The notes under the pieces: generated by a model
Database searches by the model: none
Told to the model about the DNA's origin: nothing
Seen by the model: the letters and a program-made list of their open reading frames with translations, nothing else
Origin: Squalus acanthias
Taxonomy: Eukaryota
DNA length: 64,000 bases
Reading direction: 5' to 3'
Assembly: GCA_030390025.1 (NCBI GenBank)
Contig: CM059432.1
Span: forward strand, 97,094,001-97,158,000
Program-made: the position numbers and the translations under genes
Shown here: in pieces, positions 15,590 to 63,400 of the stretch
Layout: every line of letters begins with the position of its first letter
How positions within the stretch are numbered: position 1 is the first letter of the stretch

Positions 15590-16151
15590 CACAAATCACT
15601 AAAAGTATCGACACAGGTTAACAAGGCCATTAAAAAATCAAAACAAGCACCAGGGTTTATATCTAGAGCTATAGAATTGAAAAGTAGTGAATTTATGCTA
15701 AACTTGTATCGAACCTTGGTTAGACCACACTTGGCGTATTGCGTACAATTCTGGTCGCTATATTATCAAAAGGATATAGAGGCACTGGAGAGGGTGCAGA
15801 GAAGATTTACAAGCATGATAGCAGAAATGCAAGGGTATACCTATCAGGAAAGGATGAAAAGGCTGGGTCTCTTTTCTTTCGAAGAAAAGGCTGAGGGGTG
15901 ACCAAATAGAGGTCTTTAAAACCATGAAAGGTGTTGATAGATTAGATACAGAGAGAGTGTTTCCAGTTGTGGGGAAGAGCAAAGCTAGAGGCCATCAATA
16001 TAAGATAGTCAACAAGAAATCAGAAGTCGCACAACACCAGGTTATAGTCCAACAGTTTTATTTGAAATTACGAGCTTTCGGAGCTCTGCTCCTTCTTCAG
16101 GTACAGTGAGGGAATATAAATCTATTACACAGTATATATAGACAGAGAACA

Positions 16152-16622
16152 ATGTGTCTGCAGAGATACAATCCGTCAGGGAGGCATTACATCAAAGACT
16201 GCCACGGCAACCTCTGCAAGACATGCCAGATCATCAACACAGATACCATCATCACACGTGAGGACACTACCCACCAGGTACATGGTACATACTCATGTGA
16301 CTCGGCCAACGTTGTCTACCTCATACGTTGCAGGAAAAAATGCACCGCGGCATGGTACATTGGCGAGACCATGCAGACACTGAGACAACGTATGAACGGA
16401 CACCGCGCAACAATCGCCAGGCAGGATTGTTACCTCCCAGTCGGGGAACACTTCAGCAGTCAAGGACATTCAGCCTCAGATCTGCGGGTTAGCGTTCTCC
16501 AAGGCGGCCTTCGAGACACACAACAACGCAAAATCATCGAGCAGAAACTGATAGCCAAGTTCCGCACCCATGAGGACGGCCTCAACCGGGATCTCGGGTT
16601 CATGTCACGCTACAGAACGTGA
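16152..16622 (+). CDS. Penelope GIY-YIG endonuclease C-terminus (N-terminal 16 codons come from the inverted arm)
   Basis: CKTC...NVVYLIRC...WYIGET...RQRMNGH...VGEHF...H...EQKLI...GLN. Confidence 0.8.
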   Translation: MCLQRYNPSGRHYIKDCHGNLCKTCQIINTDTIITREDTTHQVHGTYSCDSANVVYLIRCRKKCTAAWYIGETMQTLRQRMNGHRATIARQDCYLPVGEHFSSQGHSASDLRVSVLQGGLRDTQQRKIIEQKLIAKFRTHEDGLNRDLGFMSRYRT

Positions 16623-40950: not shown

Positions 40951-42385
40951 GTACCAGAGATTTGTAGGACTCATATGAACATGCAAAAAAGGACAGGAAA
41001 AGACCAACTGATCCATTCAACATGTCCCATCCAGGTATGGTGCAGCCTACTTACACCATCAACTCAACCCGTTCGCCAGCCATACAGTTTCCCGGTAGAG
41101 GCAAACAAAAGAGAGAAAAAACATAGCCCAATTTAGGGGAAAATGCATAAATTTCCTATCTGACATCCAAAGGCAAGGCAAGCTCCAGTTTAAACCTGTA
41201 TAGTAAGCTATAGTTATCCTAGAGGAACCAAGTGGAACTGAACCACAACTCCAGAGATATGTAAAGGGACACTTTCACTTTGATCTGTCAAGGGTTTGTG
41301 ATTTTATACTTGTCCATTGAGTACCTTGCAATATTTTTCAATTCTTTCTCAATCTGGCTAGAATAATGACTTGACTATCAAAAATCTTGGATTTTTTGGT
41401 TGGTTTGTCTTTCTTCTTGGTAAACCTAAATGCTTCAGTTTTCATTTTTATTCTTTGAAATAAGCATAAACTTCTAACACAAATGAAGTAATGTACTCAA
41501 GTAAAAAGGCCCCAGCTATAAATAACACAAGTTCAGCCAGAAATGTTTTTGTAAAAAGCTTAAACTATTTGTGCCTTCAGTGTTATAATGGCTTTAGGTG
41601 TAGGTATATTTAATCTGCTGGATTTTTACATATGTATTATTAATTATGCCTTTCATCAAATGATTGGTATGCAGTAGCTCCAGGTCTGCCATACCACTGT
41701 CATTGACGGAATCAGTGACAAATAACTGGTTTTTACTGAAAAAAGGCTGCTTGAGGCGCTCCCAGATGATTCCTTAAACAGACAGAACTACACCAACTGA
41801 CACTCGCTTGTAGCTATCAGAAAACAAAACCCCATCATAGTAAATGTTAAGATGAGCCAGGATTTTGGGTCAGCTGTGATGCCCCTGCAGTTGAATAGAC
41901 TGCCAACGTTCACTGTTTTGTCTAAGACACTAAAGAAAAGTAACTTCGGTAAGATATAAAAGGGCTGCCAGCATCCATGGAACACAATTTCAGCATGGAA
42001 CTTCTACATTGTGGTGAAGAGGATTAAAGGGAGAAAATTGAAGGAAAATTTAAAAAAAATCTTGTACATTAATTAATATTTGTATAATTCATTATTAGTT
42101 TCTGGAAGCAACAATTTTGTAAATATCGCTAAATTATATGATGAGAATGTCCAGAAAAGCTGGGTAAGAATTGTACTGTGACAATAGCAATCATTTGAAA
42201 GATTTAGTTTCCTTTTAATTGTTTAATCTGCAGCTTTTTAGAATTTTATAAAATAAGTTTGGCTTGGCATTATTTGTTCATCTTTTTCTCAAATGCAAAT
42301 ACACCAATAAGGTAAATAAGGCTGTTTCCATATTGTTAGGAGTATTTTGATTCATGTCAGCTGTGGCTCAGTGGGTAGCACTCTC

Positions 42386-44417
42386 TCGGTGGGAGCGGCT
42401 AGGAGTGAGCAGGTGCTGCTGGGTGCTTGATTACCGCAGGGAGTTGGAGTAAGTTTGTAAAACGTTGGTGGTGGGTTTATTTTCAGGTTTTAGGCCGATT
42501 TTGGTCCTTAAACAGCAGCCAGATGGCTGCTGAGGGGCCTGGAGTGCCGGGCCCCTCAGAGGACAATGTTCCCAAGATGAAATGAATCAGGGGAGAAAAT
42601 GTTGGGGGAAGGGTAAAAAAACAAACAAAGATTTGGGCCGAGACCCCAGGAGATTTGGAAAAGAAAACATGGTGGTGGTTCAGTGCGAGGATAAGGAGAT
42701 ACAAGCTTGGGATATTATCCAGGCGGTACATGAGGACTGCGGCGAGGGAAGCTGCTTTGCCTGCCGACCAAATCCGAATGTTGGGTTTGAGGTGATGGTC
42801 AGTGGCCGAGAGGAGGTAGAAAGACTTTTACTGAGTTTGAAGGTTGGAGATAAGTTCTTGGAGGTAATTCTGCTATATTCTGAAGAGGTGGTGGTCTCAT
42901 TCTTAAACCTGCCGGTTTATATTGAGGACGATGTGCTAATAAAAAGGTTGGAGTCGTGGGACTTTAAATTTGCTCAGCAATAAAGAGGAGATACTATCCA
43001 GGAACATGGGTAGCAGATGGAACCCGTTATGTAAAGGTGCGGTTCCCAGAGGGGGTGAAGCCGTTGCCGTATAGCATGAAATTCGAGACAATGGAAGGGG
43101 TGCAGTACTTCCAGGTACTGCATGATAGCCAGGTGAAGGTTTGTTATTATTGTCTTGGACATGATCATCTTGTAAGAAGCTGTCCAGACTTGGACTGTTA
43201 TAACTGCGGTGAGTCTGGACACATCGCTTGGAGCTGCAAGGTGGAGAGCTGTGGGGTGTGTCACAAAGGCCCCACCCGCTGTGAGTGTGAGGCAGAAGGA
43301 AGCCCCTTCAGTGATGAGGAGGAGGAGAAGGAGAAGGAGCAGGAGGTGTGATTGGAGCGGCTGGAGGAGCAGAGCAGGCGGAGGACACAGCTGATGAATG
43401 GAAGGAGAAAAGAGTGCAGGAAGAGGCAGAAAATTGCAGAGCAGAGAACAGGATGGAGATGGTGGAAAACACACCAAGTACAGTGGAAAAGGACAAAGAC
43501 AGCAGCGGGCTGCACGGGTCGAGGGCAGAGTCAAGCCATAATACGGCTCGGTTCTCCCTAAAGAACCTGGTGTCCGCGGGGGGAGAGGAGGTGGGAGCGG
43601 GGTGCGGGCTAAGTGTAAGTATTACAAAGAAAGACGGGTAGTCGGACACCTCGGGGAGCAGGAGGGGGCAAGACAAGGAGAGGGTGCAAGAGGCAGGAGC
43701 CTTAAAGGGACAGCAGGGCAGGAGTGGGGAGACAAGGACGCCAGAAGGGAGCAAGATAGGTGCAGATGTGCTATTGTCTCAGAGAGAAGAAACGGGGAGC
43801 AAGGGTCAGCAGTGGAGATGAGGCCGAAGGGAGTGGCACTATTGGAGAAACCGTGATAGCAGGAAGACTCTCTAAGGGAGATTATGTATCTGACGGGAAG
43901 CAGCGATGCGAGGTTACAGAAGAACTCGAGAGTGAGGAGTCAGAGGGGCACAGAGGCATGGAAGTGGGGGGTGGGGTGGCATCATGTGGAAAGGGAAAGA
44001 TTAGTGAGGGACAGAAGGAGGGAGAAGGGGCAGCTCCTTGGCCCAAACCTAATGTAAGGAAGAGGCTGAAACTGCAAGGAAGATTCAAACAGGAGGTGAA
44101 AAAGAGCTGGAGGCTGCAGGAGAAAGCAACAGCTGCCCGAAAAGTTGGGAAGGAGCATGAGAGAAGGGAAGGGCCAGAGATTAAATCATGGGGGGATTAT
44201 CAGGCACACTTCCCTTATTCACAGCCATGATTACTGATCAATTTTTAAAGTACAATAGATTAGTATATGTTATGGGAGACAAATTAAACTTCAGGTTTTG
44301 ATAATATGTGGTGGAGGAATGGCTGTGCAGAGCAGCAGAATGGATTTGTATGATACAGTGGAATGATCACGATGTTGTAAATGTTTTTAATGTTTAATAA
44401 ATAATAAATTTAAAAAA
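42386..44417 (+). mobile_element. ORF1-only Tx1/L1-group non-LTR retroelement (~2.0 kb)
   Basis: 5' UTR, zinc-knuckle ORF1, no EN/RT, AATAAA plus A tail; 16-bp TSD AGTGGGTAGCACTCTC / AGTTGGTAGCACCCTC. Confidence 0.85.
42523..44230 (+). pseudogene. Tx1-type ORF1 (ZCCHC3-like, CCHC zinc knuckles), frameshifted
   Basis: VSFLNLPVYIEDD, ADGTRYVKVRFP, LPYSMKF, CYYCLGHDHLVRSC, CYNCGESGHIAWSC. Confidence 0.8.
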
Positions 44418-44704
44418 AGTTGGTAGCACCCTCGCCTCTGAGTCAGAAGGTTGTGGGTTCAAGTCCCACTCCAGAGACTTGAGCACATAAATCTAGGTTG
44501 ACATTCCAGTGCAGTACTGAGGGAGTTTTGGAGCTTTCAAGACTGAGATCAATAGATATTTGTTAGGTAAGCTTATCAAGGGATATGGAGCAAAAGTGGG
44601 TAAATGGCGTTGAGGTGCAGATCAGCAATGATCGAGTAGAATGCTAGAGCAAGCTCGAGGGGCTGAATGGCCAACTCCTATTCCTAATGTCCCCATGTTC
44701 TTTG

Positions 44705-44970
44705 GTGGTACTGGTTGAAGGATAAATCTTGGCCTGAATATCAGATAAAGTCCCTTCTCTTCCTTGAATATTTTTAACTTTCACCCCAACATGTAGTTGT
44801 GGCCACAGTTTAACATTGCAACTCAAGGAATACATCTCCAAAAATGGAGTGTTCCCTCAATATTGCATTGGAATTTCATCTTGGATTATGTGTTAAAGTC
44901 CTGAAATGGAGCTTGAATCCACAACCTACTGTCTGAGATGAGAGTACTACCAACTAAACCAAGCTGACAT
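44705..44970 (-). mobile_element. Degenerate tRNA-derived SINE
   Basis: Minus strand ATGTCAGCTTGGTTTAGTTGGTAGTACTCTC...GGATTCAAGCTCC resembles the SINE at 42355. Confidence 0.65.
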
Positions 44971-45161
44971 GTTCATAATGCATAGCTTTATGAATTTACA
45001 AATATGCATTTTTGATTTCTGTACTATTAATATATGCATGTCTTTCCAGTGAACTTAATGTATTGTGATGGTTTTTACAATCCAAATACAAATTAAAGGA
45101 GGTTTGGTCTGGCATTTATTTTATTCTAAAATTTCTCAAATAGGGAGATTAATGCCTTATT

Positions 45162-50142: not shown

Positions 50143-51797
50143 GGCCCGGATTTTACAGTAAAGATAACGGTGAGGCTATCAACGTTCAACATTATTACGG
50201 AGAAAATCAGACAGCAACTGTCGGCGAGCGTACATGCGCAGTTAAATGTGGAAATCAGGAAGTTGCTGTCCTAGTTGCCCTGCTCCTCCAGAAGCTTTGC
50301 TCTCATCCAGAAACTTGCCATTCAAATACATGGAACATGTGAAGTTATGGTACTTACCCATTAGATACCTACTGAACTTGTCAGATCCATTCCAGTGTAA
50401 GTGAATTTTTAATGGTGTGGTACATCTTAATTACTGCTAAACAACCCCTCTGGCAGTGAAAATTAACTTTTACAAGTGTGGAGTCTGATTCCTACAGATT
50501 TAAATTATTGTTGTAGATTTAAAAAAATTAAAAATTAAAAAATTATTATTTTTACTTTTTCTTTCTGGCTCTTTTTCTCTCTCTCTTTTAATTCCATGTT
50601 TTATCCATCTCTTTTTCTCGCTTTCTGCACATGATTTGGCATTGAATTAAATATTCTAACTTACATTTGCTTGTTCAGACTCTGCGGGGGGAATTTTAAC
50701 CTCAAAAAAACAGGTGGATTGGCCCAACCTGCCTCCAACAAGCCCAATTCCAGTTTTAACGGAGGAAGAATGGGGGCGGGCAGCCAACCAGCTCCCAGAA
50801 GGCGGATCGGGCATTTAAATATTTTAATGAAGCTTGCATGCCTCATGGTTATCCACCATTCCAAATTTAACAGTGGCTGGTCGGGTTTCCCGGGCTTTGG
50901 TGAACCCACCAGCTAAAGGAAGGTAAGGACTGCTGGATCCAGGAGGTAAGTGCCTTTACAATTACCTCCTGGATCCAGCGTCCCTGTCTCACCAGCCCCC
51001 ACCCCACCCCCACTGTGATTGGATAGCTCCCTGAGGCCTCCGATCTGCGCCCCCCCCCCATGTATCCAATCCCCCCCCCCCCGCCACAAGGCCTCCGATC
51101 TTCCCCTGACCTCTCCTCGCCTGAAGCACCCGATCGCCTTTCCGGCCCCACTCACTGCAGCCCCGATGCTCCAGCGACCCCCAACCAACCACCACCTCCC
51201 CCCCCAACCAGGATGCTCCTCCGGCCTCTCTCCTCCAGCCCCAATGCTCCTCCGGCCTTCCTTCTCCAACCCCGATGCTCCTCCAACCCCCCACCCCATT
51301 GTCCTCCGGCCCTAGATCATCCTCTGGCTCCCCATTCCACCCCCGTTCCTCTTCCAGCCCCCGACCACACCACACCCCGCCCCCCAATCCGATTGCTCCC
51401 TCCACCCTCTCTGTGGCCTAGTGCCACAGGCCTATCCGACCGCAGGCAAGCAGTCTCTCCATTTGGCTGGCTGCAGGCGGCAATCGGTGCATTGAAATGC
51501 TAATCAGGTCTTGCCATTAAATTCGGCAGGACCTGCAGGTAACTCGTTCTCATGGGTTTCCCGTGCTTTCTAGCCACCCTGCTCCCGTTCCGCCTCTAGA
51601 TTAAAATTCCGGCCTGCGTGTCTCAGTAAGGATTCTTCAGTCTGATTGGTTACGGAGATACATAGTTGCTTGCCGTGTTCACACAGGTCCCAGATCCCCT
51701 GTAGAGGTCGCTCCGTCAAAGTGCTTTCGAATCACAGCACGTTCAAGTGCAAAGATCCACAGAAGGTCTATGGGTAACTACAAGTGCAATGAACGGC
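50143..51797. mobile_element. Outer Harbinger-type non-autonomous element, right end unclear
   Basis: Starts GGCCCGGATTTT; hosts the inner MITE and the duplication breakpoint. Confidence 0.55.
50686..51614. mobile_element. Harbinger-type MITE with C-rich core
   Basis: GGGGGGAATTTTAA / TTAAAATTCCGGCC; TSD TGC. Confidence 0.85.
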
Positions 51798-54022
51798 AGG
51801 CGCCAGAGCCACCCAAAGTGAAAGCCACTTTTCCCATCCCAAATTGCGAGGCTGGAGTCATTGGCATGGCTCATGTTGCACCCAGCCTGACTGAGGCCCG
51901 AAATGTCTCAATGACTCCATGTCATTCCAACACAGCAGATGCTCCTGTAAAAGGCCTCATGTGAACAGAGTGGCCCCAAATGGAGCTATCAAGCTATTGC
52001 TGAAAGTAATTGCCCCCTCAAGGAATTATTACTTGTTCCCTCCAGTGTTCTGTAGCCTTTACTAGGCGCTCAGCAGGCACAGGTTCTGTTGGGCCTATCA
52101 GTAGGCAGAAAGGGTGGAATATCCGAGGAAGTCCGGATACTCTCTCAGCTGTGCCCCCTTGACATGGAGTGTGGGGTCTCAGTAGATCTACCCTTGGCAT
52201 CCCTACCAGTAAATACAATTTTTCAGTATCTTTTTAGTATGCTTGTTGTTAAAAAATGTTTTACCCATTTGTCACACCATTTGCAGTGACCGGTAGTTAC
52301 AGCTGAAAAATATGGCTGATAGACCTGGTTGGTAACTAAGATCCTAGAATAGCTACATACATCAAGTTCATTGTAACATTTCATACCACCAGATGTATTG
52401 TTAAGAGGAACCTTTGGCCTCTTACAAAGAGTCTACAGTTTCTGGGACATTTCTGTTCCTCGACTTCAGTCCAACCCTAAGAATATCTATAGCTCTTATT
52501 CCTCTGATATTCTCAATCTTTCACAACATTGCTGAGAGTTGTGACATTCATGTGAGTTAGAATTAGATTTTCAGGTGCAACAGAATGACAAAAGATTGCC
52601 AATGACACAGTCATAGATTCTCAACAGACTGTGATCTGACCAGAAAAGTCAAAGCAACATTTAATTACGGTGTAGTTATTTAACTGGTATTTAACAAAAA
52701 ATACCAGTTTAGTCGTTTAGTCTTTTTTTTCATTACAATTTCTCATTTAAATAATCAGCAATCTTTTAAGATTGTAAGCATTTATCATTTTTTTCATAAC
52801 TTGTTGGCAACACCCATTACGGTTGGATTTTCTGAAAGTTTGCTTTTTTAAGGACTTATGGAAACCTCTCAAAATTACTTAAACAATGCATGCTAATGAT
52901 ATAAATCAAAGGTTTATGTCTGTGGAAGAGTCAGTCACATCTAAGGAAAATTCTGCACTTTATTGAAGGTGTTTGGATATATTCTTTGACTTCAAGGACT
53001 CACAAAATCTAGCAAGAGACAGCTCTCATAGCTGAGAAAGCAGAGGTGTAGAATGTCTATCTCATCAACTGGCCATGTGCAGGAATTCATAAGAAATCCT
53101 CTGATGTATCTAAATCAATGCTGGAATTATTGGGACCCAATGCTTTTGGATGCTGTTGCTATAGTCACATGCAGGGCAACCTAACAATACACCATTTCAC
53201 TGCTTTGATTATATGGAAGCAATTTACTGCTCAGTACTCTGCATATGTTTCCAACATCCTGTGTGAGAAATGAAGTCCCATAAGATCTATTTCTAGAGAC
53301 ATCAGAAGAGAATAAGGTAGCCCATTGGACCCCACTCTGTACCTGCTCATCCTTCTTCATCCACTACCTCTTTTGCTGCTTCATTACCAATGCCTATTGT
53401 TTCATGCAGTTTTTCCTCAGTAGATCATACATGGCTGCCACCCTATAGGATAAACTTTGCAAGGCCCGAAGCCATTGTGGCCTGGCTCACAGCCAGTGCA
53501 TATTATAAATTTGTAGGTGCACTGTTATTGCTTTTGTGATATGTACTGGCTGCCCATGAGGCTGCGCTGGTGGCACAATGCCTCACAAATTTTACCCTTA
53601 TGAGTGTATAAGCCTACTTATCCATTTAGGTCATTGTCAGCACATGAACTATTAAGCATGTGCTCTGTACGTGTTCAAATATGTGAGAATTCAGGCCCTA
53701 TAAGGTCTATATCCAAAGTCATTAGAAGAGGGTGAAGCACCCATTGGACCTTCTCTGATTTCTCTTCTTTGTCCCTGATCAGTTTTTCATAGACTGAATG
53801 GACATATTTACATAAGATAGGGAACAAAGTACAGAAAGATTTTTTAAAAACCTGATTTGTATAGCATCTTGTGACATCTTTCAGAAACATCCAAAGTACA
53901 TCACATGCAATTAATTAATTTGAAGTGTAGCCACTCTTATGTAGGCAAATGTAGCTGTCATTTTGCACATTGTGTGACCCCACAAATGCTAATGAGATGA
54001 ATGTCTAAGAAGGGTTTTATAG

Positions 54023-55061
54023 ACAAGCAAAATACTGCAGATGCTGGAAATCTGAAATATAAACTGAAAAAGCTAGAAATACTTTGCAGGTCAGGCAGCA
54101 TCTGTGGAGAGAGAGCAAAGTTAACGTTTCTGATCGATGATCTTTCATCAGAACTGGAACAGGTTTTAAAATGTAACAGGTTTTAAGCAAGTACAGAGAC
54201 TTGAAAAGGAGTGAGGGGAGGAAAGAACAAAGGGGAGGGTCTATGGTAGGATGGAAGGCAGGAGAAATTAAATGACAAAAGGTATGATGTTGCAAGGCAA
54301 AAGGGGGTGGTAATGGGACAAGTTAAGAAACAAAAGGCGGGTCTAGAGGAGGTGTAAATGGCAATAGCAGAATCATTACCAACAGCTGTTGTCCGAAAAA
54401 ATAGGAGCGGTGGTTATGATCTGAAATTGCTGAACTAAATGTTGAGTCCGGAAGGCTGTAAAGTACCCAATAGAAAGATGAGGTGCTGTTCCTCGAGCTT
54501 CCATTGAGCTTCATTAGAACAGTGTAGGAGGCCGAGGACAGAGAGATCAGAGTGGGAGTGGGGCGAAGAATTAAAATGACATGGATTGAACGGAGGTGTT
54601 CTGCAAAGTGATCACCCAATCTGCGTTTGGTCTTCCCAGTGAAGAGACCGCATCGTGAGCAGCAAATACAATATACTAAATTGAAAGAAGTACAAGTAAA
54701 ATTTATGTTTCATCTGGAAGGACTGTTTGGGGCCTTAGATGATGGGAAGAGAGGAGGTAAAAGGGCAGGTGTTGCATCTCCTGCGCTTGCACGGGACGAT
54801 GCCATGGGGAGGGGAAGGGTTGTTGTGGGTGATTGAACAGTGGATCAATGATGTTATGGAGAGAACAGTCCCGACGGAATGCTGAAAGGGGAGGAGAGGG
54901 GAAGATGTGTTTGTTGGTGGTGTCACGCTGGAGGTGGCGGAAATGGCGGCGGGTGACCTGTTGAATGTGGAGGCTGGTGGGGTGTAAGGTGAGGACAAGT
55001 GGAACCCTATCGTGATTCTGGGAGGGAGGGGAAGGGGTGTGAGCAGAATTGCGGGAAATGA
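54023..55061 (-). mobile_element. 5'-truncated Penelope-like element (GIY-YIG and hammerhead tail) inserted in a SINE
   Basis: CKRRRCNTC, GDHFAEHLRSI, LEEQHLIF, GLN; TSD GTTTTATAG (54014-22, 55062-70). Confidence 0.88.
54122..54151 (-). ncRNA. Minimal hammerhead ribozyme
   Basis: CTGATGA-aa-GATC-atc-GATC-a-GAAA-CG-TTA. Confidence 0.7.
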
Positions 55062-55371
55062 GTTTTATAGTGTTGATTGAGTGAGTAATATTGGCCAGGA
55101 GATCAGAAGATTCCCTGCTCTTCCTTTTTTAGGTCCTTGGAATAGTTGGCATCCACCTGAACTACTGGAACAGGCTGACAGCGCCTTAGTTTAATGTTTC
55201 ATCCACGTGAACTAGCAAAACAGTCAGATGGGTTTAATGTGTCCTCTTGCAGAGAGCCAGCACGGGCTCGACAGACCAAATGGCCTTCTACCATGCTGTA
55301 ACCATTCTATGATTCTATGATTCCAAAGACAAGATCACCATACATTTGATCAGTAAACTAGGCTAACACTT

Positions 55372-55704
55372 CAGTGAAGTACTGTAGGAGTGCTACATTA
55401 TTGGAGGAGCTCTCTTTTGGATGGGACATTAAACCAAGGCCTTGTTTGCAATCTCGGGTGCATATAAAAGATCCCATGGCAACATTCAAAGAAGAGTTTT
55501 CCCAGTATCCTGGCCAACATTTATCCCTCAACCAACATCACTAAATACAGATTATCTGGTCATTTATCATATTGCTATTTGTTGTGCACAAAGTGTCTGC
55601 TACTTTTCCCTACATTATAAAAATGACTACACTTGAAGAACACCTCATTGCTGGAAAGCATTTTGGGACATCCTGAAAGGTGCTATATAAATGCAGCTTC
55701 TTTC
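55372..55704 (+). mobile_element. Degenerate SINE body and tail with L2-like 3' end
   Basis: Ends TGAAAGGTGCTATATAAATGCAGCTTCTTTC; related minus-strand copy at ~53835-54003. Confidence 0.6.
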
Positions 55705-55710
55705 TTCTTT

Positions 55711-56147
55711 CATAGAAACATAGAAACATAGAAACATAGAATCTAGGAGCAGGAGTAGGCCATTCGGCCCGTCGAGCCTGCTCCACCATTCAATACGATC
55801 ATGGCTGATCATTCAAATCCAGTACCCTGTCCCTGCTTTAATCCCCACAGTACACATATCCCACCCTACCCCCGTATTTAATTCCCCCTAACATATCCCA
55901 TCCTATCCCCATAACCCCACATATTTAATCCCCACCTAACACTAAGGGTCAATTTATCATAGCCAAATCAACCTAACCCGCACATTTTTGGACAGTGGGA
56001 GGAAACCGGAGCACCCGGAGGAAACCCACGCAGACACGGGGAGAATGTGCAAACTCCACACAGACAGTCAGCCGAGGTCAGATTCGAACCCGGGTCCCTG
56101 GCACTGTGAGGCACCAGTGCTAACCACTATGCCACCGTGTTGCCCCG
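55711..56147 (-). mobile_element. HE1-like V-SINE
   Basis: A box TGGCATAGTGG, B box GGTTCGAATC, V-domain TGTGTGGAGTTTGCACATTCTCCCCGTGTCTGCGTGGGTTTCCTCCGGGTGCTCCGG, CR1-type tail (TTCTATGT)n. Confidence 0.88.
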
Positions 56148-57420: not shown

Positions 57421-60400
57421 TCTTTTTCTCTCTCTTTTAATTCCATGTTTTATCCATCTCTTTTTCTCGCTTTCTGCACATGATTTGGCATTGAATTAAA
57501 TATTCTAACTTACATTTGCTTGTTCAGACTCTGCGGGGGGAATTTTAACCTCAAAAAAACAGGTGGATTGGCCCAACCTGCCTCCAACAAGCCCAATTCC
57601 AGTTTTAACGGAGGAAGAATGGGGGCGGGCAGCCAACCAGCTCCCAGAAGGCGGATCGGGCATTTAAATATTTTAATGAAGCTTGCATGCCTCATGGTTA
57701 TCCACCATTCCAAATTTAACAGTGGCTGGTCGAGTTTCCCGGGCTTTAGTGAACCCACCAGCTAAAGGAAGGTAAGGACTGCTGGATCCAGGAGGTAAGT
57801 GCCTTTACAATTACCTCCTGGATCCAGCGTCCCTGTCTCACCAGCCCCCACCCCACCCCCACTGTGATTGGATAGCTCCCTGAGGCCTCCGATCTGCGCC
57901 CCCCCATGTATCCAATCCCCCCCCCCCCACAAGGCCTCCGATCTTCCCCCAACCTCTCCTCGCCTGAAGCACCCGATCGCCGTTCCGGCCCCACTCACTG
58001 CAGCCCCGATGCTCCTGCGACCCCCAACCAACCACCACCTCCCCCCCCAACCAGGATGCTCCTCCGGCCTCTCTCCTCCAGCCCCAATGCTCCTCCGGCC
58101 TCCCTTCTTCAACCCCGATGCTCCTCCAACCCCCACCCCATTGTCCTCCGGCCCTAGATCATCCTCTGGCTCCCCATTCCACCCCCGTTCCTCTTCCAGC
58201 CCCCAACCACACCACACCCCGCCCCCCAATCCGATTGCTCCCTCCACCCTCTCTGTGGCCTAGTGCCACAGGCCTACCCGACCGCAGGCAAGCAGTCTCT
58301 CCATTTGGCTGGCTGCAGGCGGCTATCGGTGCATTGAAATGCTAATCAGGTCTTGCCATTAAATTCGGCAGGACCTGCAGGTAACTCGTTCTCATGGGTT
58401 TCCCGTGCTTTCTAGCCACCCTGCTCCCGTTCCGCCTCTAGATTAAAATTCCGGCCTGCGTGTCTCAGTAAGGATTCTTCAGTCTGATTGGTTACGGAGA
58501 TACATAGTTGCTTGCCGTGTTCACACAGGTCCCAGATCCCCTGTAGAGGTCGCTCCGTCAAAGTGCTTTCGAATCACAGCACGTTCAAGTGCAAAGATCC
58601 ACAGAAGGTCTATGGGTAACTACAAGCGCAATGAACGGCAGGCGCCAGAGCCACCCAAAGTGAAAGCCACTTTTCCCATCCCAAATTGCGAGGCTGGAGT
58701 CATTGGCATGGCTCATGTTGCACCCAGCCTGACTGAGGCCCGAAATGTCTCAATGACTCCATGTCATTCCAACACAGCAGATGCTCCTGTAAAAGGCCTC
58801 ATGTGAACAGAGTGGCCCCAAATGGAGCTATCAAGCTATTGCTGAAAGTAATTGCCCCCTCAAGGAATTATTACTTGTTCCCTCCAGTGTTCTGTAGCCT
58901 TTACTAGGCGCTCAGCAGGCACAGGTTCTGTTGGGCCTATCAGTAGGCAGAAAGGGTGGAATATCCGAGGAAGTCCGGATACTCTCTCAGCTGTGCCCCC
59001 TTGACATGGAGTGTGGGGTCTCAGTAGATCTACCCTTGGCATCCCTACCAGTAAATACAATTTTTCAGTATCTTTTTAGTATGCTTGTTGTTAAAAAATG
59101 TTTTACCCATTTGTCACACCATTTGCAGTGACCGGTAGTTACAGCTGAAAAATATGGCTGATAGACCTGGTTGGTAACTAAGATCCTAGAATAGCTACAT
59201 ACATCAAGTTCATTGTAACATTTCATACCACCAGATGTATTGTTAAGAGGAACCTTTGGCCTCTTACAAAGAGTCTACAGTTTCTGGGACATTTCTGTTC
59301 CTCGACTTCAGTCCAACCCTAAGAATATCTATAGCTCTTATTCCTCTGATATTCTCAATCTTTCACAACATTGCTGAGAGTTGTGACATTCATGTGAGTT
59401 AGAATTAGATTTTCAGGTGCAACAGAATGACAAAAGATTGCCAATGACACAGTCATAGATTCTCAACAGACTGTGATCTGACCAGAAAAGTCAAAGCAAC
59501 ATTTAATTACGGTGTAGTTATTTAACTGGTATTTAACAAAAAATACCAGTTTAGTCGTTTAGTCTTTTTTTTCATTACAATTTCTCATTTAAATAATCAG
59601 CAATCTTTTAAGATTGTAAGCATTTATTATTTTTTTCATAACTTGTTGGCAACACCCATTACGGTTGGATTTTCTGAAAGTTTGCTTTTTTAAGGACTTA
59701 TGGAAACCTCTCAAAATTACTTAAACAATGCATGCTAATGATATAAATCAAAGGTTTATGTCTGTGGAAGAGTCAGTCACATCTAAGGAAAATTCTGCAC
59801 TTTATTGAAGGTGTTTGGATATATTCTTTGACTTCAAGGACTCACAAAATCTAGCAAGAGACAGCTCTCATAGCTGAGAAAGCAGAGGTGTAGAATGTCT
59901 ATCTCATCAACTGGCCATGTGCAGGAATTCATAAGAAATCCTCTGATGTATCTAAATCAATGCTGGAATTATTGGGACCCAATGCTTTTGGATGCTGTTG
60001 CTATAGTCACATGCAGGGCAACCTAACAATACACCATTTCACTGCTTTGATTATATGGAAGCAATTTACTGCTCAGTACTCTGCATATGTTTCCAACATC
60101 CTGTGTGAGAAATGAAGTCCCATAAGATCTATTTCTAGAGACATCAGAAGAGAATAAGGTAGCCCATTGGACCCCACTCTGTACCTGCTCATCCTTCTTC
60201 ATCCACTACCTCTTTTGCTGCTTCATTACCAATGCCTATTGTTTCATGCAGTTTTTCCTCAGTAGATCATACATGGCTGCCACCCTATAGGATAAACTTT
60301 GCAAGGCCCGAAGCCATTGTGGCCTGGCTCACAGCCAGTGCATATTATAAATTTGTAGGTGCACTGTTATTGCTTTTGTGATATGTACTGGCTGCCCATG

Positions 60401-63400
60401 AGGCTGCGCTGGTGGCACAATGCCTCACAAATTTTACCCTTATGAGTGTATAAGCCTACTTATCCATTTAGGTCATTGTCAGCACATGAACTATTAAGCA
60501 TGTGCTCTGTACGTGTTCAAATATGTGAGAATTCAGGCCCTATAAGGTCTATATCCAAAGTCATTAGAAGAGGGTGAAGCACCCATTGGACCTTCTCTGA
60601 TTTCTCTTCTTTGTCCCTGATCAGTTTTTCATAGACTGAATGGACATATTTACATAAGATAGGGAACAAAGTACAGAAAGATTTTTTAAAAACCTGATTT
60701 GTATAGCATCTTGTGACATCTTTCAGAAACATCCAAAGTACATCACATGCAATGAATTAATTTGAAGTGTAGCCACTCTTATGTAGGCAAATGTAGCTGT
60801 CATTTTGCACATTGTGTGACCCCACAAATGCTAATGAGATGAATGTCTAAGAAGGGTTTTATAGACAAGCAAAATACTGCAGATGCTGGAAATCTGAAAT
60901 ATAAACTGAAAATGCTAGAAATACTTTGCAGGTCAGGCAGCATCTGTGGAGAGAGAGCAAAGTTAACGTTTCTGGTCGATGATCTTTCATCAGAACTGGA
61001 ACAGGTTTTAAAATGTAACAGGTTTTAAGCAAGTACAGAGACTTGAAAAGGGGTGAGGGGAGGAAAGAACAAAGGGGAGGGTCTATGGTAGGATGGAAGG
61101 CAGGAGAAATTAAATGACAAAAGGTATGATGTTGCAAGGCAAAAGGGGGTGGTAATGGGACAAGTTAAGAAACAAAAGGCGGGTCTAGAGGAGGTGTAAA
61201 TGGCAATAGCAGAATCATTACCAACAGCTGTTGTCCGAAAAAATAGGAGCGGTGGTTATGATCTGAAATTGCTGAACTAAATGTTGAGTCCGGAAGGTTG
61301 TAAAGTACCCAATAGAAAGATGAGGTGCTGTTCCTCGAGCTTCCATTGAGCTTCATTAGAACAGTGTAGGAGGCCGAGGACAGAGAGATCAGAGTGGGAG
61401 TGGGGCGAAGAATTAAAATGACAGGCGACAGGAAGCTCAGCATCACGCTTGTGGATTGAACGGAGGTGTTCTGCAAAGTGATCACCCAATCTGCGTTTGG
61501 TCTTCCCAGTGAAGAGGAGACCGCATCGTGAGCAGCAAATACAATATACTAAATTGAAAGAAGTACAAGTAAAATTTATGTTTCATCTGGAAGGACTGTT
61601 TGGGGCCTTAGATGATGGGAAGAGAGGAGGTAAAAGGGCAGGTGTTGCATCTCCTGCGCTTGCACGGGACGATGCCATGGGGAGGGGAAGGGTTGTTGTG
61701 GGTGATTGAACAGTGGATCAATGATGTTATGGAGAGAACAGTCCCGACGGAATGCTGAAAGGGGAGGAGAGGGGAAGATGTGTTTGTTGGTGGTGTCACG
61801 CTGGAGGTGGCGGAAATGGCGGCGGGTGACCTGTTGAATGTGGAGGCTGGTGGGGTGTAAGGTGAGGACAAGTGGAACCCTATCGTGATTCTGGGAGGGA
61901 GGGGAAGGGGTGTGAGCAGAATTGCGGGAAATGAGTTTTATAGTGTTGATTGAGTGAGTAATATTGGCCAGGAGATCAGAAGATTCCCTGCTCTTCCTTT
62001 TTTAGGTCCTTGGAATAGTTGGCATCCACCTGAACTACTGGAACAGGCTGACAGCGCCTTAGTTTAATGTTTCATCCACGTGAACTAGCAAAACAGTCAG
62101 ATGGGTTTAATGTGTCCTCTTGCAGAGAGCCAGCACGGGCTCGACAGACCAAATGGCCTTCTACCATGCTGTAACCATTCTATGATTCTATGATTCCAAA
62201 GACAAGATCACCATACATTTGATCAGTAAACTAGGCTAACACTTCAGTGAAGTACTGTAGGAGTGCTACATTATTGGAGGAGCTCTCTTTTGGATGGGAC
62301 ATTAAACCAAGGCCTTGTTTGCAATCTCGGGTGCATATAAAAGATCCCATGGCAACATTCAAAGAAGAGTTTTCCCAGTATCCTGGCCAACATTTATCCC
62401 TCAACCAACATCACTAAATACAGATTATCTGGTCATTTATCATATTGCTATTTGTTGTGCACAAAGTGTCTGCTACTTTTCCCTACATTATAAAAATGAC
62501 TACACTTGAAGAACACCTCATTGCTGGAAAGCATTTTGGGACATCCTGAAAGGTGCTATATAAATGCAGCTTCTTTCTTCTTTCATAGAAACATAGAAAC
62601 ATAGAAACATAGAATCTAGGAGCAGGAGTAGGCCATTCGGCCCGTCGAGCCTGCTCCACCATTCAATACGATCATGGCTGATCATTCAAATCCAGTACCC
62701 TGTCCCTGCTTTAATCCCCACAGTACACATATCCCACCCTACCCCCGTATTTAATTCCCCCTAACATATCCCATCCTATCCCCATAACCCCACATATTTA
62801 ATCCCCACCTAACACTAAGGGTCAATTTATCATAGCCAAATCAACCTAACCCGCACATTTTTGGACAGTGGGAGGAAACCGGAGCACCCGGAGGAAACCC
62901 ACGCAGACACGGGGAGAATGTGCAAACTCCACACAGACAGTCAGCCGAGGTCAGATTCGAACCCGGGTCCCTGGCACTGTGAGGCACCAGTGCTAACCAC
63001 TATGCCACCGTGTTGCCCCGTTTCTTTCACTGTTTTACTGTGAATCATTACACTTGTGCACAAAGGCTATTCTGCATACAGAGTAACATTTGATCTCACA
63101 ACCTTACGGAAGCCTTGACAAAGTTGCATAAAACGTTACCTCATTTCTGGGTCCTGAGCAGCCTAACCAATGGTCCTTAAAGGAACCACTGGATGCCACT
63201 CAAAATTTTGTGGATTCAGAAGGAGGAGGAGTGCTCCTGCTGGTTTCACAAAACAATTGCAGGCCGCTACTGACCCACCCTCACTCCCCTCCCTATCACC
63301 TCTACTCCACCCCACACTCCCTTCCCAGACTTACTTCTGGGCTTCGGTATAGACAAGCTGCATCGGGACACTTATTTGGCACCTGCAACTGACTTGATTT

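Follow-up and report, generated by a model that had tools for sequence, protein, structure and literature searches.

In the 64-kb window (the whole stretch of DNA analysed here), an ORF1 with zinc knuckles lies between the marks of retrotransposition, and neither an endonuclease (EN) nor a reverse transcriptase (RT) accompanies it. The locus raises the question of whether it is a single LINE that lost its ORF2 in place or a member of a family that has multiplied in this shortened form. We hold with good confidence that the window copy is a decayed member of a multi-copy family that lacks ORF2 and derives from a two-ORF LINE, likely of Tx1 type, and that this family was likely spread by its own ORF1 protein together with the EN and RT of a full-length relative.

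Structure of the insertion and its ORF1

The element (42386–44417) was 2,032 bp long and consisted of a 5′ UTR, ORF1, a mini-ORF, a 3′ UTR and a short A tail (Table 1). The two copies of the 16-bp target site duplication (TSD) were identical at 14 of 16 positions, and the tail comprised 6–7 letters (A6, 44412–44417) behind AATAAA repeats. At this locus the TSD and the A tail mark the element as having been retrotransposed as a unit. The original prediction of a complete insertion with a 5′ UTR, an A tail and a 16-bp TSD was borne out, the duplication being imperfect and the tail just 6–7 letters long.

Table 1. Coordinates of the element, its remnants and its target site in the window
Feature	Position	Strand	Details
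5′ piece of target, tRNA-like SINE head	42355..42385	+	A-box-like 42364–42374; left TSD copy 42370–42385
5′ UTR	42386..42522	+	137 bp; TSD to first ATG; high contig depth
ORF1	42523..44230	+	Starts at first ATG (42523); ~569 codons in span; broken in window copy
Two CCHC zinc knuckles and third Cys cluster	43142..43288	+	PF00098, E 1.4e-7; Cys/His columns invariant in 24 aligned sequences
ORF2 5′ remnant	44227..44234	+	Start codon overlapping ORF1 stop (ATGA), up to deletion point; 19 run-on contigs of X14
ORF2 3′ remnant	44235..44301	+	~Last 21 codons and stop, in frame with start; C-terminal profile rank 1
3′ UTR	44302..44417	+	110 bp with AATAAA repeats, then A6 tail
Right TSD copy and rest of split SINE	44418..44524	+	Right TSD copy 44418–44433; B-box-like 44456–44466

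The conserved half of ORF1 (42600–43290) was followed by a low-complexity charged tail. In the window copy, the frame was interrupted by two in-frame stops outside the repeat stretch (42583–42585 and 43639–43641) and by four frame changes (near 42613–42626, 42965, 43349–43352 and 43780); its last open part (43760–44230, 156 codons) was ended by the TGA of ATGA. The predicted zinc-knuckle ORF1 was upheld as regards the knuckles, which were matched by the zf-CCHC profile within the piece 42977–43348, but the breakage of ORF1 by stops and frame changes had been overlooked.

A full HMMER search with 42977–43288 retrieved 1,058 proteins at E ≤ 0.001, including 343 at E ≤ 1e-10. The top 150, when mapped back, followed one frame up to ~42960 and the next frame from there. 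Among the clusters of these relatives that were looked up, five of ten carried names: four were from teleost fish and the fifth from a bacterial MAG contig. Two pieces of ORF1 gave no matches in word-index protein searches, which is weak evidence; single-protein scans of metagenome and genome contigs also gave none, and five matches to viral contigs yielded no locus. A weakly supported KPN-type motif occurred near the ORF1 end in about 10 of 110 sequences. In a quick ORF1 tree (102 rows, with the careful search unfinished), the element stood on a long branch to which no family name was given, and its ORF1 was not grouped with 5S-associated loci.

The relatives included the ORF1s of two-ORF elements of 5.5–5.8 kb (L001–L003), whose ORF2 of ~1,280 aa started within a few bases of the ORF1 stop. 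Of eight related loci examined, L002 lay in a 5S rRNA gene (Rfam E 1.6e-9) and L008 had a weak 5S match (0.038); L001 and L003 showed the same 5S 5′ flank by eye. These 5S-associated loci indicate that the related group includes elements targeting Pol III genes, like Mutsu. Zinc-knuckle ORF1, APE-RT ORF2 in the parent and poly(A) end together correspond to the Tx1 clade, and RRM/zf-CCHC ORF1s of non-mammalian animals have been linked to Tx1 (PMC5203782). By its ORF architecture, the parent is a likely Tx1-type LINE. The excerpts of PMC13343379 contained no mention of Tx1.

Several contigs carrying the ORF1 relatives P0010 and P0122 and their clusters were ~1.8–2.2 kb long (P0010: 1,935–1,938 bp three times), unlike other ORF1 relatives, which were found on contigs of 5.3–6.1 kb. 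The short contigs may represent further ORF1-only elements or mere contig breaks. Further, L007, L008 and P0011 were animal-type LINE sequences found on contigs deposited as bacterial MAGs, where they probably represent contamination from the host.

The missing ORF2 and the 24-codon frame

Two of the ORF1 relatives were gene models fused to an RT. A search with that RT retrieved 99 proteins, 47 of which were full-length ORF2s of 1,244–1,283 aa. The profile of these 47 detected no EN or RT in the element (best E 1.7 over 78 six-frame segments), in agreement with the predicted absence of both. Re-reading of the sequence and its reading frames also confirmed that the stop of the ORF1 region overlaps an ATG (ATGA, 44227–44230) opening a frame of 24 codons (44227–44301). 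An alternative in-frame ATG at 44188 would extend the mini-ORF to 37 codons. The ORF2 start was placed at 44227 because contigs running on into ORF2 read in frame from there.

Parts of the stretch occurred in 20 listed runs from seven studies with six organism labels, each of which contained less than half of its words. Four runs were compared as Logan contigs: X1 (organism A), X6 and X17 (organism C), and X14 (organism E). In X14, 19 contigs departed from the window sequence behind 44234 with a consensus agreement of 0.81. Translated by hand in frame from the ATG at 44227, this consensus reads MITLVSINVNGL, a typical N-terminus of a LINE endonuclease. It was identical at 10 of 12 residues to the start of the related ORF2 P0198, and such an N-terminal motif was located near the start of 32 of the 47 related ORF2s. 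In L001, L002, L005 and L007, ORF2 started two to three bases behind the ORF1 stop or overlapped it, a spacing consistent with the ATGA overlap.

The 3′ part of the frame was compared with a profile built from the C-terminal 40 residues of 45 ORF2s (the 47 without two duplicates). The mini-ORF scored a modest 9.2 bits, ranking first among the 1,677 stop-terminated 24-mers of the window, and 11 of 5,000 shuffles did as well. The ungapped, end-anchored score was weaker: 9 of 1,676 decoys did as well, and so did 44 of 2,000 shuffles. On the 3′ side, the best-laid contig of X14 started at 44242. Aligning the mini-ORF to ORF2 termini, the check that had been proposed, thus gave its best score against related C-termini, and this result together with the endonuclease reading of the 5′ run-on supports the predicted fusion of the ORF2 start to its extreme C-terminus. 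ORF2 has been deleted between the two remnants. Splicing was rejected as an unlikely cause of the deletion, as there was no GT at the break in the parent-type sequence.

Copies in other organisms and the target site

Median element depth over the flank was 3,020 in X1, 3,680 in X6 and 1,120 in X14, with unique flank bins at a depth of 5–8; these rough values are read as 'very many', since Logan contigs merge repeats and summed depth is no copy number. The flank diverged from the window by 2 letters in 430 in organism C, by 40 plus 17 gap letters in 670 in organism A, and by 54 plus 21 in 636 in organism E. The flank contig of organism A entered the element by 30 letters, one short of the bridging rule, and the insertion site is probably filled in that organism too.

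Twelve letters before the break, at 44222, family-letter contigs reached 64 (X1), 46 (X6) and 72 (X17) letters on each side and therefore cross the junction. In X14, all 26 family-letter contigs at 44222 ended within 13 letters, at 44235, and the same end was seen in the rows for 44221 and 44187. One X17 contig (record 21) covered 44146–44293 ungapped with 6 differences in 148 (~4%), against ~0.5% in the flank of organism C, and X17 showed the family letters at 44187, 44221 and 44222, where the window differs. This contig is very probably a paralogous copy bridging the same junction, given its divergence relative to the flank rate (P 8e-5, or 0.04 if the rate is set to its upper bound). The junction is present at more than one locus: the search for further copies, as originally proposed, gave bridging contigs in X1, X6 and X17, the one in X17 being paralogous, and hence at least one extra copy. 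Record 21 had a depth of 9.8, within the 4.0–12.9 of the ORF1 pieces listed for X17, and the single-copy flank bins were empty, which argues that the junction form is common in this run.

The run-on loose end at 44234 was not among the six rows listed for X1, nor among the six for X6, a list that includes rows of 6 and of 18 contigs. X17 and this absence from the listed rows are the grounds for the probable dominance of the half form in organisms A and C. Beyond the rows listed, the comparison of the four runs comprised a further 1,755 loose-end rows, 117 joints and 512 substitutions. No contig spanned the whole element in the four runs, so that half and full copies are not countable. At the ORF1 end in organism E, every informative contig was of the full-length type, and depth was high and even. 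The proposed search for an autonomous partner was thus successful to the extent of this full-length-type run-on in organism E, but no full-length partner was seen in organisms A or C. The parent type was visible in organism E only, by 30 letters of sequence, and the copies there could be deleted further inside ORF2. It is likely that the ORF2-less family spread in one lineage and that full-length-type copies persist in another. No RNA run was listed as containing the stretch; the RNA status of X17 is a guess and was not counted as evidence of expression.

Other copies also informed the reading of the ORF1 breaks. Their contigs, in which half and full forms are mixed, had different letters at 42582 and 42584, so that the first stop was absent, and showed indels or loose ends at 42613–42626, 42965 and 43780, corresponding to three of the four frame changes. 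The fourth (43349–43352) lay in the repeat skipped by the contig comparison, and the stop at 43639–43641 had no row among those listed. The checkable breaks are accordingly private to the window copy. In the substitution count (37 of 40 listed rows, with 44062, 44334 and 44337 left out), 29 of 35 coding differences were private to the window copy, 20 non-synonymous and 9 synonymous. This shows neutral decay of the window copy, as in a dead copy, and carries no information on the family.

In run X6, six contigs with unrelated upstream sequence joined the element at 44346 and matched the final 70 bases of its 3′ UTR. The tail from 44346 on may be common to another family, either a partner or a second derivative.

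The element inserted into the head of a tRNA-like SINE, duplicating 16 bp of it; this target had been overlooked in the original prediction. Both flanks are halves of one SINE, as judged from an uninterrupted copy (44853–44975, minus strand) that aligned to the left and then the right flank and contained the duplicated 16-mer once, and from SINE contigs that left the left piece with exactly the sequence of the right flank (loose ends 42385–42388). Loose ends piled up before 42354/42355 in all four runs. The stretches marked A-box-like and B-box-like in Table 1 are what we take to be the Pol III boxes. Since the A box contains the start of the duplication, the A and B boxes now lie 2 kb apart. 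No tRNA was found at the target by Rfam or ARAGORN. The SINE presumably resembles SacSINE1 or Deu-SINE.

Three lines of contig evidence suggest that other copies occupy the same site. At 42396, ten bases into the element, family-letter contigs reached 44, 42, 45 and 34 letters on each side in the four runs, so that contigs of other copies include the SINE head in all of them. In addition, an X14 contig starting at 44242 continued into the right TSD, as far as 44432 or beyond, and a joint in X1 (42381 to 44238) was read as a 5′-truncated copy at the same SINE site. No pile of loose ends was found at 42386 or at the tail among the 24 rows listed. A preference for this SINE site is, on balance, fairly probable; the targeting criterion in PMC4494074 is 20%, according to its excerpts. 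The SacSINE1 family has been described (PMC5499810). In the related locus L004, the 5′ flank directly before the element (25–62) aligned to the SINE site through a common motif, and no tRNA was matched in this flank by Rfam. We take L004:25–62 to look like the 5′ half of a tRNA gene, as a lead only.

Origin, alternatives and comparison with known elements

One deletion in the parent removed nearly all of ORF2, amounting to ~3.7 kb if the parent resembled the relatives of 1,260–1,283 aa. It left the ORF2 start codon and the five bases behind it fused in frame to roughly the final 21 codons, and spared ORF1, the 3′ UTR and the A tail. By analogy with LINE biology, a 2-kb RNA would be transcribed from the 5′ UTR and translated. 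The ORF1 protein would coat its own RNA and join the particles of the partner, as proposed for HeT-A, HAL1 and Ag-Sponge (PMC5786205). Because the element has no RT, its mobilisation would be in trans, with the borrowed ORF2 protein nicking the SINE head inside the A box and priming reverse transcription at the A tail. Complete copies were probably made more often from the short RNA than from the 5.5-kb parent, which would have let the half form overtake the parent in number in organisms A and C. More tentatively, the element may be a site-specific parasite of a parasite, with an ORF1 under selection, a fixed insertion point in a Pol III A box that is thereby cut from its B box, and thousands of copies, having overtaken its parent in one shark lineage while the sister lineage kept the parent.

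The case that had been named as contradicting the prediction, a single copy whose ORF2 was deleted after insertion with all relatives full-length, would fit the finding that no second copy of the element lies within the 64-kb window, but is highly improbable because the 4%-divergent contig with family letters at three sites bridges the junction in organism C. It is also improbable that the half form is a handful of deleted copies in a full-length family, with the depth coming from ordinary full-length and truncated elements. Such a family would agree with organism E, where the informative contigs are uniformly of the full-length type at high and even depth, and with the few bridging contigs among the rows listed. 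The depth of the bridging contig in X17, equal to that of the ORF1 pieces while the unique flank is uncovered, and the lack of the run-on loose end in the rows listed for X6 and X1 argue against it. Selection could instead have kept the 24-codon ORF, for example if re-initiation at AUGA and a nearby second stop stabilise the RNA or recruit the ORF2 protein in trans; this is quite improbable. The frame is open in the old window copy and runs ungapped up to 44293 in X17 record 21, but one in three random deletions keeps the frame, 72 bases easily stay open at a divergence of a few percent, and the retained 3′ 183 nt contain no unusual fold or recognition hairpin (z 0.04). The mini-ORF is most likely a deletion scar, not a gene, and has no job; it could conceivably be translated by re-initiation, and nothing suggests a function.

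A further alternative accepts the half family as real and regards ORF1 as a passenger under no selection, the RNA having moved through its 5′ promoter and 3′ end like the bipartite non-coding LINE derivatives of the Bov-A or RIME type, which are well known (PMC5786205). We regard this as rather unlikely, since the full 1.7-kb ORF1 has been kept, the first stop and all but one of the four frame changes are absent from other copies (in contigs that mix half and full forms), and the ORF1 of HAL1 has been reported to remain coding for 29–44 Myr (PMC3627910, excerpt). The reading that we prefer remains a derivative that supplied its own ORF1 protein and borrowed ORF2.

With a LINE ORF1, no EN or RT, TSD and A tail at this locus, and a junction shared by several copies, the element belongs with the ORF1-only LINEs. 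HAL1, the half-L1 of mammals (Bao and Jurka 2010, as cited in PMC5753468, PMC5786205, PMC3627910 and PMC13756887), is likewise a non-autonomous derivative that arose by internal deletion and retains only the 5′ part, ORF1 and the LINE 3′ end, and its own ORF1 protein plus a borrowed ORF2 protein are thought to be needed. The shark element is not a HAL1 in the strict sense: the ORF1 of its parent is of the zinc-knuckle, fish Tx1 type, with named relatives from teleost fish, instead of a mammalian L1 ORF1, and the element appears to prefer one SINE site. HeT-A and other ORF1-only telomeric Jockey elements of Drosophila (PMC13534243) and Ag-Sponge of the CR1 clade (PMC5786205) also depend on the ORF2 of another family. 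They belong to other clades. The apparent target of the shark element is a dispersed SINE head, with no known host benefit. Bipartite non-coding derivatives (Bov-A, RIME, NARTc and Vingi derivatives; PMC5786205) share the joining of LINE 5′ and 3′ ends by internal deletion, but are without ORF1 and derive from the RTE, Ingi, Vingi and R2 clades.

Target-specific LINEs of the Tx1 clade include Tx1L, Keno, Mutsu (5S rRNA), Dewa (tRNA spacer) and Tx1-Mar (PMC4494074, PMC3706591). They insert with a TSD at a fixed site in a multicopy target, as the shark element apparently does, and some ORF1 relatives of the latter (L002 and, by eye, L001 and L003) lie inside 5S rRNA genes. Unlike the shark element, they are autonomous, and the targets given in the excerpts are transposons, microsatellites, snRNA genes, 5S genes and tRNA spacers, not a SINE head. 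The overview in PMC5786205, as excerpted, lists ORF1-only LINEs in the L1, Jockey and CR1 clades only. Neither an ORF1-only Tx1 element nor a Tx1 element targeting a SINE head was found in the literature searched, a scope that excluded Repbase and Dfam; the family may already be catalogued in one of these databases or in the supplements of PMC4494074. By analogy, the element would work like HAL1 and HeT-A.

The element has a precisely defined breakpoint and many copies, and its parent type survives in a related organism; these features make it suitable for tests of whether ORF1 is needed in cis, and the presence of half form and parent type allows one to ask whether the former suppresses the latter. 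The element also bears on whether site targeting favours ORF1-only parasites, as suggested for fly telomeres; in Drosophila, ORF2 was lost repeatedly in targeted (telomeric) lineages, with no such loss seen outside the telomeric ones, according to the excerpts of PMC13534243. The SINE-head preference, if true, would be a new target class for this LINE group. The parasite-of-parasite reading, if true, would make the element the counterpart of HeT-A in vertebrates and allow the idea to be tested that targeted LINEs are those that breed ORF1-only parasites.

Elsewhere in the window, an apparent tandem duplication with a period of ~6.87 kb comprised 50913–56135 and 57762–63008, as indicated by matching ORFs (54703/61576 and 50989/57762) and SINE heads (56117/62990). 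The segment 30180–33728 has what we take to be the look of a Harbinger-type transposon pair, with a Myb/SANT-like frame on the plus strand and a transposase-like frame on the minus strand. In addition, the frames at 16110–16622 and 54703–55128 (minus strand) presumably resemble Penelope-type elements (GIY-YIG-like).
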